Part shown: positions 25,659 to 61,290 of the stretch, piece after piece | How positions within the stretch are numbered: position 1 is the stretch's first letter | Layout of the letters: every line of letters starts with the position of its first letter | From: Alphaproteobacteria bacterium | GTDB taxonomy: Bacteria > Pseudomonadota > Alphaproteobacteria > GCA-2731375 | DNA: 64,000 nucleotides | Assembly (NCBI GenBank): GCA_965225945.1 | Contig: CBDDBZ010000033.1 | Coordinates: forward strand, 247,533 to 311,532 | Direction: 5' to 3' | The notes under the pieces: generated by a model | Databases searched by the model: none | Seen by the model: the letters and a program-made list of their open reading frames with translations, nothing else | What the model was told of the DNA's origin: nothing | Position numbers and translations under genes: made by a program

Positions 25659-25732
25659 TGGCTGGGGGAGAAGGATTCGAACCTTCACTGGCGGAGTCAG
25701 AGTCCGCTGTCCTACCATTAGACGATCCCCCA
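25659..25732 (-). tRNA. tRNA-Gln(CUG)
   Basis: TGGGGGA acceptor stem, anticodon arm GCGGA-CT-CTG-AC-TCCGC, GGTTCGAATCC T-arm, encoded CCA. Confidence 0.95.
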
Positions 25733-39662: not shown

Positions 39663-39739
39663 TGGCGACCCCGGCAGGATTCGAACCCGCGACCTGTGGA
39701 GTAGAAATCCACTGCTCTATCCAGCTGAGCTACGGGGCC
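39663..39739 (-). tRNA. tRNA-Arg(UCU)
   Basis: GGCCCCG acceptor, GTGGA-TT-TCT-AC-TCCAC anticodon arm, TTCGAAT, CCA. Confidence 0.95.
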
Positions 39740-40243: not shown

Positions 40244-40320
40244 TGGTCGGGGAGACTGGATTCGAACCAGCGACCCTCTGCTCCCAAAGCAGATGCGCTA
40301 CCAGGCTGCGCCACTCCCCG
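40244..40320 (-). tRNA. tRNA-Pro(UGG)
   Basis: CGGGGAG acceptor, TCTGC-TT-TGG-GA-GCAGA anticodon arm, TTCGAAT, CCA. Confidence 0.95.
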
Positions 40321-43827: not shown

Positions 43828-43895
43828 GGTTTCGCTCCATTCGAGGATGGGGCGAAGGGTGTTTGCGCGTGTTGGAAAGGTTGCTTTGCCAACCC

Positions 43896-44016
43896 TCTCA
43901 ATCCCTCCGCCGGTATGATCCGGATCAGGTTCATCGGGTTGGTCCAGGAACCCCGGCCGAAGAGCCGAGCCTTCTTGACCTCTCAGTCCCACGCACGCGA
44001 GACACCCCGTTGAGAT
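43896..44016 (-). promoter_or_regulatory. TPP riboswitch
   Basis: Minus strand reads GGGGTG...CTGAGA...ACCCGATGAACCTGATCCGGATCATACCGGCGGAGGGA, directly upstream of thiB. Confidence 0.93.
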
Positions 44017-44078
44017 GGCGCACAGTGTAGTCGCTTCGGACCGCTTTGGCCAACCCGTCGGCCACGACGCGAAGCGGC

Positions 44079-56206: not shown

Positions 56207-56445
56207 TCAGGTTCTACTTTGATCGGTCAATGCGGCGCAAGAAAAGGGGTCATTCTGCTTTATTGGCCGCTGCGGCAGGCCTCTTCATGGCTCGTGTCGC
56301 CAGCGCCAGCGGAGGCGGAAAAGTAGAATGACCCCTTTTTCGGTACGGCGGCGGCGTCCTGAGTGGTGACCATCAGGCCGCGAAGTGGACGAGGCACCAC
56401 CGCGGATCGCCGCGCCACTGCCGGCCCGCGCGCTTGCGCAAAAAG

Positions 56446-56477
56446 ATCGCGGTAGGGACATGAGTTACCCCACGCCC
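56446..56477 (-). ncRNA. Orphan group II intron domain VI (3' tail of an older intron)
   Basis: Minus strand GGGCGTGGGGTAACTCATGTCCCTACCGCGAT: a hairpin with a bulged A and an AY end, paralogous to the adjacent DVI. Confidence 0.6.
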
Positions 56478-57138
56478 TTCGCCGTAGGGACGCGGGTTAC
56501 CCCGCGCCCCCGGCACAAAACCCGGCGTGCGGAACTACCGCACCGGGCTTCCACCTCGGATGTTTGACGGCAAAGCAACTTGCCGTACACGCTCCAGCCC
56601 CTGGGTCACGCTTACCCGGCTCGGTGTCCGGTACGTATCGGGTTGAACCATGTTCTCCTCGGCGCCTCCCCTTGGCTCCACCAGCTCCGCCGTCGATTGT
56701 TCGACTTTGTTCGCCGGCTTCACGGCTACTATGGGAGGCTCAGACTTCTGGCGGCCGTTCATCGCCGGCGACGCCCCCTCGGGGCTTCCCAGCACGACCC
56801 GAGCCCACCAAGCGGTCTCGGGTAGCCACCAGATCTCCCGGTTCCCTGACAAAGTGCGTATGCGCATGCCTGGGGTCTTGGACCACGCCGGGCCGGCAAA
56901 CCGCTCGCGCTAACGCGGTGCGCCATGTTGTCTTCCCCATAACGGGAGAGGGTCGACACCCGGGACGACAGCTGTTTCACGGCTCGATATCCCAGCCTGC
57001 GCACACCCCTACCGACGCTTCGCCGACACCCTCGCGGATGCCAACGCACGGCTCGGAGGCCGATGTGGTTCGCTACTCCTTCATGCGCACCCCCCGCGGT
57101 TACGGTAGGAATGCGCTTGCACCTCCAACACCTTGCCG
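56478..57138 (-). ncRNA. ORF-less (internally deleted) group II intron, 5' end interrupted
   Basis: DV GAAGCCCGGTGCGGTAGTTCCGCACGCCGGGTT and DVI; domain I similar to the intron at 59207. RT relic RTPSRVSVTQGLERVRQ is joined directly to the 3' end. Confidence 0.8.
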
Positions 57139-57326
57139 GTTACGGTAGGAATGCGCATTGCTGCGCACCCCCCGCGGTTACGGTAGGAATGCGCATTGCT
57201 GCGCACCCCCCGCGGTTACGGTAGGAATGCGCATTGCTGCGCACCCCCCGCGGTTACGGTAGGAATGCGCATTGCCGCACCCCCCGCGGTTACGGTAGGA
57301 ATGCGCATTGCTGCGCACCCCCCGCG
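57139..57326 (-). repeat. Five tandem copies (38,38,38,36,38 nt) of the intron domain VI tail, plus a partial copy at 57085-57116
   Basis: Unit gttacggtaggaatgcgcattgctgcgcaccccccgcg starts at 57139, 57177, 57215, 57253 and 57289. Confidence 0.93.
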
Positions 57327-59207
57327 CAGATCCGGACGTGGTCGTTGAACCATCCGGCTCCTACCTCGGGTGCTTGACGGCAAACCGCTGGTCCGGCCAT
57401 GGGTGGCGGATGGAGGCGCGTGGCCACAGGATTTCGGTCATGCGCTCCAGTCGCTTCCAACTAAATCGGGCTCGCTGGGACCGGCGGCGTAGCGCCCGCA
57501 TCCACCGGCGTTGCAGCCTGCGGAGGAACGCACGGATGAACCGGCCTGACCCTGGGACGGCAAAGTAGTTGAGCCAGCCATTGCAGACTCGCCCCAGCCA
57601 CCTACCAACTTCCCAGATGTCGTGGTGCCAGCGCTTGCGGAGCACCTCGTCGATGCGCGCCAGGGTCCTGTTGACCCGTTTGGCGACCGGTTTGCGACCA
57701 AGCCGAAAGCGTCCTCTCAGGGTCGTCGTGCAATAGTGCGTGAGGCCCAGAAAGTCGAAAGTCTCCGGCTTGCCCACCCCGCGCTGGCGCCGGTTCAAAT
57801 CCGCGAACCGGCCAAACTCCACGAGGCGGGTCTTGTCCTGGTGGAGGCTGAGACCGAACCGGGCCAGCCTCTCCCGAACGTCGCGGAGGTACCGCTCCGC
57901 ATCCCGCTTGTGTTGGAACCCGACAACGATATCGTCAGCGTAACGGACGATGATCGCTTCGCCATCCGGGACGTTCGGGCGCCATTTCTTGTGGAACCAC
58001 AAGTCGAGCACGTAATGCAGGAACACGTTCGCCAAGACGGGGGAGACTATTGCCCCCTGCGGCGTGCCCATACCCGTATCTGCCCATGACCCACTCTCTA
58101 TGACGCCGGCGTTCAGCCATTTCCAGATCAGACGGATGACCCGCCTGTCTCCGATGCGGTGCTCTAGGAACCTGATCAACCAATCCCGCGGGATCGTGTC
58201 GAAGTACGCCCGGAGGTCTGCATCGACTATCCAGCTGACCTTGCGCCGTTTTATCCCGAAGGCCAGGGCATCGAGCGCATCGTGCGCCCCCCGCCCCGGT
58301 CGGAACCCGTAGCTGAAGCCAAGAAACACCACCTCGTAGATCGGTGTCAGGATCACATCCACAACCGCCTTCTGGACGACCTTGTCCTCCAGCGCCGCGA
58401 TCCCGAGCGGTCGTGTCCCCCCGTCCGGCTTGGGTATCTCTACCCGCCGAACCGGCGGCGCCCGGTACGCTCCCCCTCTGTGCAGGCGCCGGTGCAGGTC
58501 GAGCAGGCGCTCATCCAGACCCTCGCCGTACATGTCCCACGTAACGCCGTCGACACCGGCTGCTGCGTCCTTCTTCAATGCGAAGTAGGCCGCACCGAGC
58601 GCGTCCGGCGTAATGTGGTGGAAGAGCGCAGTGAGACCTTCCTTCGGGTTTCTCTCTGCAGCTTTCCGTATCCGGGCCGCCGCCTGTGGCACGCTTACCC
58701 GACACTGGGTTCGGCGCGTGCTTTGGCAATCCGGATTCCCCTTGGTTGAGGCCCTTTCCTCCGGCGACTCCGCAGAAGCTCGCGCTCCCTTGTTCGCCGC
58801 CCTCACAGGTCGTACGGCCTCATCCGACTTCTTCAAACCGTTCATCATAGGCTTCGGTTTTCTCCATTCCCTACGCGGCCCCTTTACGACAACCGGGGCA
58901 GTTTGAAGACCTCCCAGGGTCCCAACAGAAGGCGTGCGAACGTGCATGGGTTCTCTGACACCGCGGGGCTCGCCGACATCTCACCAAAACGACGCCTGCG
59001 ATATTGCCTTCGACCGATCTGAAAGCCTCGGCACCCCGGACCATCGCTTTTACGGTGCTCAATAGCCCTGCCCATCCATGCCGCTACCGACGCTTCGCCT
59101 GCCCCCTCACGGGAGCCAACGCACGGCTCGCGGAGAAACGTGGTTCGGTTACTCCTTCGTTCCGGGGGACTTGCACCCCCTACCTTCTGCCAGTTCGCCT
59201 GGCGCAC
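57289..59207 (-). mobile_element. Complete group II intron (bacterial class E-like, no En domain)
   Basis: 5' GTGCG at 59207; DV GAGCCGGATGGTTCAACGACCACGTCCGGATCT; DVI ending in AAC at 57289. Confidence 0.88.
57361..58947 (-). CDS. ltrA: Group II intron reverse transcriptase/maturase (true start probably further downstream)
   Basis: AAGVDG, IPKPDG..RPLGI, SYGFRPGR, GTPQG..SP.LAN, RYADD, FDFLG. Confidence 0.93.
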   Translation of the reverse strand: MHVRTPSVGTLGGLQTAPVVVKGPRREWRKPKPMMNGLKKSDEAVRPVRAANKGARASAESPEERASTKGNPDCQSTRRTQCRVSVPQAAARIRKAAERNPKEGLTALFHHITPDALGAAYFALKKDAAAGVDGVTWDMYGEGLDERLLDLHRRLHRGGAYRAPPVRRVEIPKPDGGTRPLGIAALEDKVVQKAVVDVILTPIYEVVFLGFSYGFRPGRGAHDALDALAFGIKRRKVSWIVDADLRAYFDTIPRDWLIRFLEHRIGDRRVIRLIWKWLNAGVIESGSWADTGMGTPQGAIVSPVLANVFLHYVLDLWFHKKWRPNVPDGEAIIVRYADDIVVGFQHKRDAERYLRDVRERLARFGLSLHQDKTRLVEFGRFADLNRRQRGVGKPETFDFLGLTHYCTTTLRGRFRLGRKPVAKRVNRTLARIDEVLRKRWHHDIWEVGRWLGRVCNGWLNYFAVPGSGRFIRAFLRRLQRRWMRALRRRSQRARFSWKRLERMTEILWPRASIRHPWPDQRFAVKHPR

Positions 59208-60243
59208 CAGATCCGGACGTGGTCGTTGAACCATCCGGCTCCTACCTCGGGTGCTTGACGGCAAACCGCTGGTCCGGCCATGGGTGGCGGATGGAGGCGC
59301 GTGGCCACAGGATTTCGGTCATGCGCTCCAGTCGCTTCCAACTAAATCGGGCTCGCTGGGACCGGCGGCGTAGCGCCCGCATCCACCGGCGTTGCAGCCT
59401 GCGGAGGAACGCACGGATGAACCGGCCTGACCCTGGGACGGCAAAGTAGTTGAGCCAGCCATTGCAGACTCGCCCCAGCCACCTACCAACTTCCCAGATG
59501 TCGTGGTGCCAGCGCTTGCGGAGCACCTCGTCGATGCGCGCCAGGGTCCTGTTGACCCGTTTGGCGACCGGTTTGCGACCAAGCCGAAAGCGTCCTCTCA
59601 GGGTCGTCGTGCAATAGTGCGTGAGGCCCAGAAAGTCGAAAGTCTCCGGCTTGCCCACCCCGCGCTGGCGCCGGTTCAAATCCGCGAACCGGCCAAACTC
59701 CACGAGGCGGGTCTTGTCCTGGTGGAGGCTGAGACCGAACCGGGCCAGCCTCTCCCGAACGTCGCGGAGGTACCGCTCCGCATCCCGCTTGTGTTGGAAC
59801 CCGACAACGATATCGTCAGCGTAACGGACGATGATCGCTTCGCCATCCGGGACGTTCGGGCGCCATTTCTTGTGGAACCACAAGTCGAGCACGTAATGCA
59901 GGAACACGTTCGCCAAGACGCGGGAGACTATTGCCCCCTGCGGCGTGCCCATACCCGTATCTGCCCATGACCCACTCTCTATGACGCCGGCGTTCAGCCA
60001 TTTCCAGATCAGACGGATGACCCGCCTGTCTCCGATGCGGTGCTCTAGGAACCTGATCAACCAATCCGCGGGATCGTGTCGAAGTACGCCCGGAGGTCTG
60101 CATCGACTATCCAGCTGACCTTGCGCCGTTCTATCCCGAAGGCCAGGGCATCGAGCGCATCGTGCGCCCCCCGCCCCGGTCGGAACCCGTAGCTGAAGCC
60201 AAGAAACACCACCTCGTAGATCGGTGTCAGGATCACATCCACA
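59208..60243 (-). pseudogene. ltrA: Second near-identical intron copy: lacks DVI, 5' part cut by IS256, RT frameshifted near 60066
   Basis: Near-identical to 57327-58363; ends exactly at ...CCGGATCTG, where the complete copy begins. Confidence 0.9.
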
Positions 60244-61290
60244 GATTGAGCAACCTGATGTGTGGAAATTCGGAACGCCGTTGATCAGTCATCCTCTGCT
60301 TTCCAAGTGATGTAGGGTTTTTCGGTGGTTTCCCATTTCTCGTCGATTTCGACGAGGATGGCGGTGACCAGACGTTCGAGCGAGGCCTCGTTGGGAAAGA
60401 CCCTGACCTTTACGGTGCGGCGCTTGATCTCCTGCTGGATGGATCGCTCCATGGGGTTCGAGGTTCGCATGCGCTTTTGGTGGCGCTCGGGCAGGGCGAA
60501 GACGGCGAGGCCCTCGGGGATCGCCGTCTCCAGCCAATCGGCGAGCTTGGGGGCGCTGTCGCGGTAGGCCGCCACCAGATGGCCCAGCTCGGCCTCGGCG
60601 GCCTTGCCGTCGGCGGCGTTCCAGACCCGGCGCAGCTCCTTGCCGATGGCCTTTCGGATGGCGAGGTTGGGGGCGTGATGGATGGCGTTTTGAGCCAGAT
60701 GGTACTGACAGCGCTGCCAGACGGCGCCGCCGAGGACGGCCTTGCGCGCGGCGCCGAGGCCTGGATGATCATCGGAAACGATATAGGCGACACCGCGCAT
60801 GCCACCGGCAACCAGGGTCTCCAGGAAGGCGCGCCAGTGCACTTCGGCCTCGGAGAGCGCACAGGAAACACCGAGCACCCGGCGGCGCTGGTCGGGGCCG
60901 ATGCCGATCACCGAGAGCACGGCGGCGTCGCGCACCACGCCACCCTCTCGGACTTTCTCATAGCGCGCGTCGAGGAGCAGGTAGCGGATCTCGCCCAGCG
61001 GCCGGTTGCGCCAGGCATCCAGCTCCCCATCCAAGAGCTTGGCGGCGCGGCTGACCTGGCTCGACGACAGGCTCTCCAGGCCGAACTCGCGCATCACCGC
61101 CTCGGCGTCACGGGTGGAGACGCCTTTGATATACATCTCCGCCACGGCCAGCATGACAGCGCGGCAGGAGCGCCGTCCGCGCTCCAGGGCTTGGGGGTAA
61201 AAAGGCGCCTCATGACCGGCGGTCTTGGGAACCTCGAGCCTCACCGTACCGGCCGGGGTGTCGATCTTCTTGGGTCTGGTGCCGTTGGCG
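60244..61290 (-). mobile_element. IS256-family element, 5'-truncated by IS21 (transposase 60285-61290)
   Basis: MYIKGVSTR, LLDARYEKVR, VSDDHPG, WQRCQYH, RTSNPMER, RVFPNE. Confidence 0.9.

Follow-up and report, generated by a model that had tools for sequence, protein, structure and literature searches.

Twintrons, in which one intron sits inside another, are well known, those of Euglena plastids included. Several published systems are relevant to the arrangement reported here. In Methanosarcina acetivorans, group II introns have repeatedly homed into related group II introns (Dai & Zimmerly 2003, via PMC4424553 and PMC2882425); the resulting nests are up to five deep, lose copies by homologous recombination and have been described as a "perpetual homing site" (PMC4424553). 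A lycophyte mitochondrial intron, cox1i1149g2, is described as "invading itself" in domain IV (DIV), with the inner copy a non-splicing "zombie" (PMC7049729). Bacterial twintrons include TeI3 in TeI4 of Thermosynechococcus (PMC2882425) and those of Trichodesmium (PMC4649490). Side-by-side tandem integration, through pairing of exon-binding site 3 (EBS3) with the first intron base, is reported for EcKTE56.groEL (PMC12584367) and for retargeted RmInt1 (PMC4075523); RmInt1 of Sinorhizobium meliloti and its relatives are endonuclease-less IIB introns (PMC3123198, PMC4075523). Finally, C.te.I1 of Clostridium tetani carries four repeats of domains V and VI (DV and DVI) as alternative 3' splice sites (PMC4424553). 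Here, we describe a group II intron, intron A, in a 64,000-nt window of an alphaproteobacterial genome (positions 247,533-311,532 of CBDDBZ010000033.1, GCA_965225945.1, forward strand). We conclude, with a probability of about 0.85, that A builds nested arrays by repeated insertion into the DV/DVI linker, both in its own copies and in related introns. The observed basis of this conclusion is the insertion junctions, their repetition, the register of exon-binding site 1 (EBS1), an empty site in a congener, and open reading frames (ORFs) that remain open.

The genome holding the window (G000) is a 6.27-Mb assembly of 39 contigs with a contamination score of 5.6%. For comparison we used a congener (G002), a member of another family (G029) and individual loci (L-numbers). 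Intron A is the complete copy in the window; B, C and type 3 denote other intron types. A head is the part from domain I (D1) to DV (positions 1-1881), and a tail is the 38-nt DVI. The features of the nest in the window are as follows.

57289..59207, minus strand: intron A, a complete 1919-nt group II intron lying innermost in the nest (sequence reading; RF02005 and RF00029 matches)
59016..59021, minus strand: EBS1, CAGAUC, intron positions 187-192, in a D1 hairpin loop (covariance-model alignment and covariation)
57361..58947, minus strand: ORF of the intron, encoding reverse transcriptase (RT) and maturase, 528 aa if read from the first ATG (Pfam)
57361..57328, minus strand: DV helix, 34 nt, with AGC triad (fold)
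57327, minus strand: DV/DVI linker G, with the insertion point between 57327 and 57326 (junctions and fold)
57289..57326, minus strand: own DVI, 38 nt, with GCAA tetraloop and a bulged A 7 nt before the 3' end (fold)
59208..60243, minus strand: outer head, covering intron positions 845-1881; it stops at DV, has no DVI and is 99.7% identical over 1037 nt
57288..57253, minus strand: extra DVI tail 1, 36 nt, with a 2-nt deletion (sequence reading)
57252..57215, minus strand: extra DVI tail 2 (sequence reading)
57214..57177, minus strand: extra DVI tail 3 (sequence reading)
57176..57139, minus strand: extra DVI tail 4 (sequence reading)

Read on the minus strand, the complete intron begins with GTGCGCC and ends with CCTACCGTAAC. 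Its domain I matches the full RF02005 model (group-II-D1D4-6, positions 1-225) at 58949..59173 with 163.7 bits, against a gathering score of 49. The DV-DVI segment (57289..57362) scores 35.4 bits with RF00029, under the gathering score of 40; it can be aligned with the DV-DVI of eight plasmid-borne relatives (from Sinorhizobium, Burkholderia, Acidithiobacillus, Rhizobium (2), Agrobacterium, Aminobacter and Bradyrhizobium), and it folds at -35.7 kcal/mol (z = -3.7) with both helices formed. The intron protein matches RVT_1 (3.3e-37) and GIIM (2e-4; 21.6 bits, just below the cut-off of 23). No other Pfam family was found in it and it ends ~30 aa past the maturase match, and it therefore lacks an endonuclease domain (D/En, HNH). 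The ORF stops 1 nt before DV, and its true start is probably further downstream, in DIV. Judged from its sequence, A is a mobile bacterial group II intron of the RF02005 lineage and of the endonuclease-less, RmInt1-like subclass.

The outer head ends in ...CACGTCCGGATCTG, the end of DV, and the complete intron starts at the very next base: the final DV bases of the outer head are ...CCGGATCTG, with the GTGCG of the complete copy directly after. Three positions distinguish the two copies, and one of these differences is a 1-nt deletion within the ORF of the outer head; the ORF fragment of the outer head (59242..60060) still matches RVT_1 and GIIM. Thus, the GTGCG of the inner intron stands directly after the DV of the outer one, whose DVI comes next after the 3' end of the inner intron. 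These are the exact intron-in-intron boundaries of a twintron, and splicing of the inner intron would leave a sequence no different from that of an ordinary copy. On the other side of the complete intron, the tail array has a period of 38 nt, 6.4 copies and a score of 396 in Tandem Repeats Finder. A first-pass annotation had already described the complete intron directly after the DV of a near-identical copy without DVI, and four further tails reaching 57139. Our reading of the sequence confirms both, with one tail of 36 nt. That annotation is incomplete on two points: the outer copy is 5'-truncated, and the far end of the array is rearranged.

The junctions in the window are not the result of chance, because identical junctions recur across the genome. 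BLAST of A against the assembly finds near-identical copies (99.2-100%) at nine other places. In total, there are 11 loci with 19 D1-DV units, nine of which stop at position 1881 (heads) while ten reach 1919. Isolated 38-nt matches are also numerous: we count 27 DVI units (26 at two or fewer substitutions, plus the 36-nt unit in the window) versus the 19 D1-DV units. Self-junctions of the form DV/GTGCG number eight, in five places on contigs C33, C38 (two arrays), C31 and C37. Their 40-nt context is identical at all eight, and no DVI stands between heads at any of them. These self-junctions, and tail counts that vary from 1 to 6 between loci, bear out genome-wide the arrays that the first-pass annotation had seen at one locus. 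The loci are as follows.

Window locus: 2 heads; 5 tails and fragments
C38:141849-146452: 2 heads, one cut and interrupted by insertion sequences (ISs); 6 tails
C38:555991-562657: 4 heads, the first cut by the contig end; 4 tails
C31:260176-265560: 3 heads; the array runs off the contig before any tail
C37: 2 heads; 1 tail, then unrelated 3' flank
C34:398142-400136 (C34b): 1 head; 3 tails
C39: 1 head (5'-cut); 3 tails
C35: partial head, starting at the contig end; 2 tails
C24, C20 and C34:328597: 1 head each; 1 tail each

Heads of the same array differ at single-nucleotide polymorphism (SNP) positions 500, 570 and 1036, and these differences are shared with copies elsewhere. They are therefore not copies made by the assembler, and the pattern favors an origin in separate insertions or, at the minimum, in different molecules. 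The RT frame is free of stops in 12 of 12 near-identical copies of G000, heads included, and is broken in two older single copies (97% and 95% identical). Many near-identical copies with open ORFs, together with an empty site in a congener, are indirect evidence that A was recently mobile.

The empty site also joins two of the arrays. A 600-nt flank taken just upstream of the C31 array aligns with G002:C3:540721-541320, and one of equal length from the downstream side of the C38:141849 array aligns with that contig from 541331 onward (query bases 11-600); by eye, the stretch between the two matches keeps the same frame. The G002 site between 541320 and 541321 is unoccupied (...GGGTCTG/CTC...). 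Its open frame runs on into YPYGCTEQ, which we take to be the thioester region of alpha-2-macroglobulin-like proteins, and has the length of the G000 frame once the array is removed. Since the flanks of the C31 and C38:141849 arrays are adjacent in G002, the two contig pieces are two ends of one locus, with at least five heads (three on C31, two on C38) and six tails. This joined locus and the array of four heads and four tails are what one head and one tail per event predicts.

The joined array is the largest (C31:260175, C38:141848) and interrupts an alpha-2-macroglobulin-like gene that is intact in the congener. Its outermost head has T rather than G as its first base; a block at that 5' splice site is therefore expected.

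How A may find this site can be read from EBS1. CAGAUC lies inside the hairpin loop UUCAGAUC, closed by GGCU/GGUC, which the Rfam covariance-model alignment places just before the last D1 hairpin. A minimum-free-energy fold of D1 alone was discarded as a test of EBS1 (hairpin not formed, z = -0.1) and replaced by this alignment and by covariation. We compared 11 intron types: A, B and C of G000, and the eight plasmid-borne relatives. The same loop columns are complementary to the intron's own 5' flank in all 11, with 6/6 pairs in seven types and 5/6 in four (for example, TGACGT with ACGTCA, CAACTG with CAGTTG, and CCAAAG with CTTTGG). The Agrobacterium and Aminobacter introns have one loop in common, and the pairing of type B includes one G-U. 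Because loop columns and 5' flanks covary across the 11 types, the EBS1 register is fixed. The first-pass annotation had pointed to CAGAUC at 59016-59021 in a stem-loop as the likely EBS1; loop placement in the Rfam model and the pairing columns of the 11 types both agree, with a stem slightly different from the one proposed.

The flanks of A are equally consistent. The six bases 5' of A are GATCTG, GGTCTG or GGTTTG at 15/15 readable junctions in G000, 7/7 in G002 and 2/2 in G029. All 24 therefore pair 6/6 with CAGAUC, G-U allowed, as only 4 of the 4096 possible hexamers can. The recurrence of GATCTG at other 5' junctions, expected in the first-pass annotation, thus holds in three genomes once these two variants are admitted. 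Loci L013 and L014 were left out of this tally because the search pattern that found them contained the motif. In the window, GAUCUG is the last 6 nt of DV plus linker (57327..57361), and so is the intron-binding site 1 (IBS1) for incoming copies. The DV of all eight plasmid-borne relatives ends in GGATCTG, followed by (T/A/C)GCGGGG, the start of DVI. Thus, the target motif of A is invariant in the intron sequences of its lineage compared here, and A is the only one of the 11 types whose EBS1 matches this DV end. For EBS2, alignment with the relatives gave no D1 segment consistently complementary to flank positions -9 to -13; CATCGC recurs at three A sites and GCGAUG lies in a D1 loop, which is a lead only.

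Other introns, too, have A or variants 93-94% identical to it in their DV/DVI linkers; such hosts number at least five and are spread over four genomes.

Host type C, on C24 and C37 of G000: A at the DV end
Host type 3, on C34 of G000: host's own DVI after the A tails
Host type 3, L008 of G029: A at the DV end, host DVI downstream
A 70%-related host, L014 of an Alphaproteobacteria metagenome-assembled genome: A at the DV end, host DVI downstream
Another host intron, L038 of G002: carries a 305-nt A fragment

All intron-borne A sites are at the DV/DVI linker and none is in the ORF region. A is also present at ordinary sites with the motif (seven in G002, an IS3-like orfA on C20, and several genes) and is therefore not restricted to introns. 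The proposal in the first-pass annotation that the target of A is its own DV/DVI junction is thus supported by the eight self-junctions, but is too narrow, as linkers of other introns and ordinary chromosomal sites are used as well. G000 contains 2259 GG(A/G)TCTG sites, yet 11 of its 15 readable A junctions are at intron DV ends. This excess could stem from added recognition of the DV/DVI context, from action in cis at the place of synthesis, or from the survival of harmless insertions.

We propose the following mechanism. A would be an active retroelement of the RF02005 lineage, which includes a Sinorhizobium meliloti relative. Because EBS1 is complementary to the invariant DV end and linker, its ribonucleoprotein (RNP) would reverse-splice between DV and DVI of related introns, its own copies included. 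The target would be DNA rather than RNA, and priming would occur at the replication fork, by analogy with RmInt1. Each insertion would split the innermost copy into a 1881-nt head (D1-DV) and a 38-nt tail (DVI), and would supply a fresh, intact target. Repetition would yield n tandem heads, one complete copy and n tandem tails, presumably with one tail per event. Nesting depths of up to four, and of at least five, are seen. Splicing of the nest would proceed sequentially from the inside out. Later recombination between the 1.9-kb heads, IS insertions and exchange between dispersed copies would remove or reshuffle heads. Loss of heads while the short tails stay would explain why the window has two heads and five tails, and the 3' flank of the C37 array, which has no host DVI, fits exchange between dispersed copies. 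Tail counts are minimum estimates at best, since unequal exchange or slippage could add units. The first-pass annotation took the array to count at least five nested copies: five tails are indeed present in the window, but that number is an estimate of events from tails that can change in number, and only two heads survive.

Several observations weigh against repeated self-nesting. First, head and tail counts are unequal at the window (2/5 plus fragments), C34b (1/3), C39 (1/3) and C37 (2/1), so that secondary rearrangement must be invoked, and unequal recombination or slippage could add units without retrohoming. Second, the six full copies of A in G002 carry the same intact self-target, and none of the six is occupied. 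(D1 position 241, which is C in G000 and U in the un-nested G002 copies, was considered as a cause and rejected: it lies in a helix and both bases pair.) Third, the exact self-junction was not found in the genomes of other species: the junction 23-mer has two loci in 185,579 species genomes, the heterologous twintron L014 and an 86-nt fragment, L013. The self-junction 33-mer has no match in Joint Genome Institute (JGI) metagenome contigs, and a tail-tail 35-mer has no exact match there. Fourth, public sequencing neither confirms nor contradicts the arrays. It includes 24 runs from seven studies, 20 of them with the stretch or part of it and some labelled sponge metagenome, all in the form of short-read contigs. 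The four runs compared cannot resolve the arrays, although A is at high depth; no piece listed for them extends 31 nt to either side of 59207/59208 or of a boundary between two tails, and a 37-nt contig of run X3 crosses one tail boundary by only 9 nt. By eye, loose ends in X1 and X3 lead into the DV of host type 3, and those in X5 and in the RNA run X15 into sequence that resembles the DVI of other hosts. The X15 contig is at most an unspliced twintron transcript, or else DNA carried over into the library. Finally, T is at +1 in 10 of 14 non-intron A sites whereas the self-target has C, so the self-site may be imperfect at IBS3. The T excess suggests that EBS3 is an adenine. G329 of RmInt1 pairs with C at +1 (PMC3123198); homology to this base, and a conserved CCG in A, suggest instead that EBS3 is G, in which case the self-site would be a perfect match.

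The unequal counts are the starting point of the strongest alternative, in which each locus received at most one nested insertion and heads and tails were then multiplied by unequal recombination or slippage. Head and tail numbers differ at four of the six loci with both ends readable, 1.9-kb direct repeats and tandem 38-mers are prone to changes in copy number, and G000 is rich in repeats and rearrangements. Separate expansion of heads and of tails is nevertheless unlikely to yield loci with four of each, or with at least five heads and six tails. Furthermore, heads in one array have differing SNP combinations, and tails carry private changes (the 2-nt deletion in the window, a C-to-T change of the first base on C38). 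Even this route still requires at least one nested insertion at each of at least five places. We therefore regard it as unlikely.

A still less probable route is that the lariat reverse-splices into intron RNA at the DV/DVI linker, with the cDNA entering by recombination with a resident copy. The IBS1 motif is in every intron transcript, EBS1 is complementary to the DV 3' strand of the same RNA, and both routes leave the same DNA structure. Yet the motif is buried in the DV helix in RNA, according to the fold, and A is found at 14 or more ordinary chromosomal sites with the motif, as expected of normal DNA retrohoming or retrotransposition.

Wrong concatenation of intron reads by the long-read assembly is very improbable: three arrays do reach contig ends (C31, C35, C38), homopolymer indels typical of long-read error separate copies and G000 has its contamination score of 5.6%, but the precise junction occurs eight times, flanked by unique sequence and within contigs that reach 563 kb, tail number varies between loci, three further assemblies (of which two are closed or almost so) have heterologous twintrons at the identical point, and the congener has the empty site.

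Repeated insertion into the DV/DVI linker thus remains our favored explanation, and it invites a broader interpretation that we offer only tentatively: A might be a dedicated parasite of its own lineage, with its arrays acting both as RNP factories and as a tally of events. EBS1 would have evolved to read the DV 3' end, a motif that no member of the lineage can change, and every related intron, A included, would be a harmless landing pad. The arrays would be polycistronic, releasing one RNP per head from a single transcript by inside-out splicing, while the tail arrays would form a durable tally of past retrohoming. The first-pass annotation similarly spoke of a self-perpetuating safe harbor; that idea already exists for the Methanosarcina introns (PMC4424553).

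The remaining features of the window array lie at its two ends.

57138..57099, minus strand: 40-nt chimera of B-type positions 16-38 and the last 17 nt of an A tail (by-eye comparison with the intact B 5' end on C24)
57098..57084, minus strand: 15-nt start of an A tail fused to B-type D1 (by-eye comparison with C24)
56441..57083, minus strand: B-type RF02005 intron remnant without its first ~48 nt (RF02005, 142.3 bits at 56873..57093)
60285..61244, minus strand: IS256-like transposase ORF (Pfam Transposase_mut, 1.1e-74)

Only two copies of B are present: one on C24, and the window copy at 56441..57141, which has lost its first ~48 nt and forms a patchwork with A tails. The two are 96% identical over 701 nt. 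An 11-nt identity, GCGGGGTGCGC, common to the A tail and B may have promoted the scrambling. No RT similarity is found downstream in the window remnant, which contains a 32-nt tandem repeat (56447..56509; 2.0 copies, 83% matches). The 3' end of B was not found; RF00029 matches on C24 and C38 were considered for it, and belong to an unrelated intron. The C24 copy of B (C24:80986, minus strand) starts 6 nt into the DVI of host type C (...CCGTAAC/TGCGGG/GTGCGCC), beside the insertion point of A. DVI begins with GCGGG throughout the lineage, and the EBS1-loop columns of B (CCCGU) pair with this sequence. B thus appears, from these columns, to read the invariant motif next to that of A.

Type C follows AGAATGACCC in three copies whose other flanks differ (C37:367868, C24:91151, C29:42100). 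Two of them have ~1.5-kb insertions in the RT region and one has a ~5.4-kb insertion; both surviving DV ends hold A. In G029, the DV-DVI remnant of an intron at L011 retains a perfect target that nothing has entered (GTCCGGATCTG followed by CGCGGGG), and L012 has the last 31 nt of an A-like DVI followed by the DVI of another intron, apparently a relic of a decayed twintron.

The end of the IS256-like element cuts the 5' side of the outer head at 60243/60244. The same 100-nt terminus adjoins cut heads at positions ~843 and ~821 (window 60244..60343; C38:146453-146552), and in neither array is the rest of the head present on the far side of the IS. A second IS splits one head on C38. Insertions in the RT region of A were noted in three copies: 12 nt at C37:376948-378878, 56 + 34 nt at C34:328597-330605, and 48 nt (in blocks of 5, 10 and 33 nt) at L005 of G002. 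From the alignment columns these insertions, some in-frame or long, look like local duplications. By-eye BLAST estimates of the mobile-element load of G000, seen from C24:68000-80992, give three families whose members are mostly 98-100% identical: a ~1.0-kb element with ~60 copies, one of 4.1 kb with ~20 and one of ~0.76 kb with >90. A thiamine pyrophosphate (TPP) riboswitch (43885..44019) and three tRNA genes (39666..39739, 40247..40320 and 25662..25732), all on the minus strand, are unrelated to the array.

These arrays show how a retroelement can multiply and yet spare its host, if the target is an invariant part of elements like itself. The nesting leaves a readable structure, with heads on one side and tails on the other. 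It offers a natural system for studying how group II introns without an endonuclease choose their targets, what it costs an intron to have an EBS1 complementary to its own catalytic domain, how deep nests are spliced in order, and how retroelement arrays decay by recombination. There are also consequences for annotation: where 38-nt tandem repeats adjoin an RT gene, they can be recognized as intron DVI tails, and such loci will be miscounted by programs that look for group II introns with a single DV-DVI each.

A resembles each of the systems described at the outset in part. With the RmInt1 group it has several features in common: A belongs to the same Rfam D1 family (an S. meliloti relative scores 189 bits), has an RT-maturase without an endonuclease domain, is ~1.9 kb long, begins with GUGCGCC and has a DV ending in GGAUCUG. 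However, nucleotide identity to the S. meliloti relative is only ~64%, RmInt1 homes to an insertion sequence, and the RmInt1 papers that we searched by word mention no twintron, nested or tandem arrangement. Like twintrons in general, A has exact intron-in-intron boundaries, with the inner intron expected to splice first; in those twintrons, unlike in A, the inner and outer introns differ, insertion is in DIV or elsewhere, and there is no iterative self-nesting.

As in EBS3-type tandems, the resident copy of A recreates the target and copies pile up at one locus. Those tandems consist of complete introns joined as DVI-3'end/GTGCG, whereas none of the eight A junctions is of this kind and all are DV/GTGCG. 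C.te.I1 likewise has repeated 3' intron modules downstream of one core. Its repeats include DV, have coding exons between them and serve alternative splicing; those of A are DVI only, back to back, and a by-product of nesting. Like cox1i1149g2, A is a group II intron inserted in its own copy. The lycophyte case is a single ancient organelle event, while A shows many recent bacterial events, at the DV/DVI linker and with ORFs intact.

The Methanosarcina nests are the nearest precedent, in that site-specific homing into group II introns is repeated and the nest is a site without cost to host genes. Head loss by recombination, as inferred for the A arrays, would also match what is reported there. 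The targets in Methanosarcina are in ORFs (domain IV) and several intron types alternate, whereas A enters identical copies of itself at the DV/DVI linker. The A nest therefore resolves into tandem 1881-nt heads and a separate array of 38-nt DVI tails. Searches of the literature open in full text, and word searches of RmInt1 papers, gave no report of an intron entering its own DV/DVI linker or of heads and tails arrayed apart from each other. We therefore rate self-nesting at the DV/DVI linker as a new twist on the known nesting of introns within introns.

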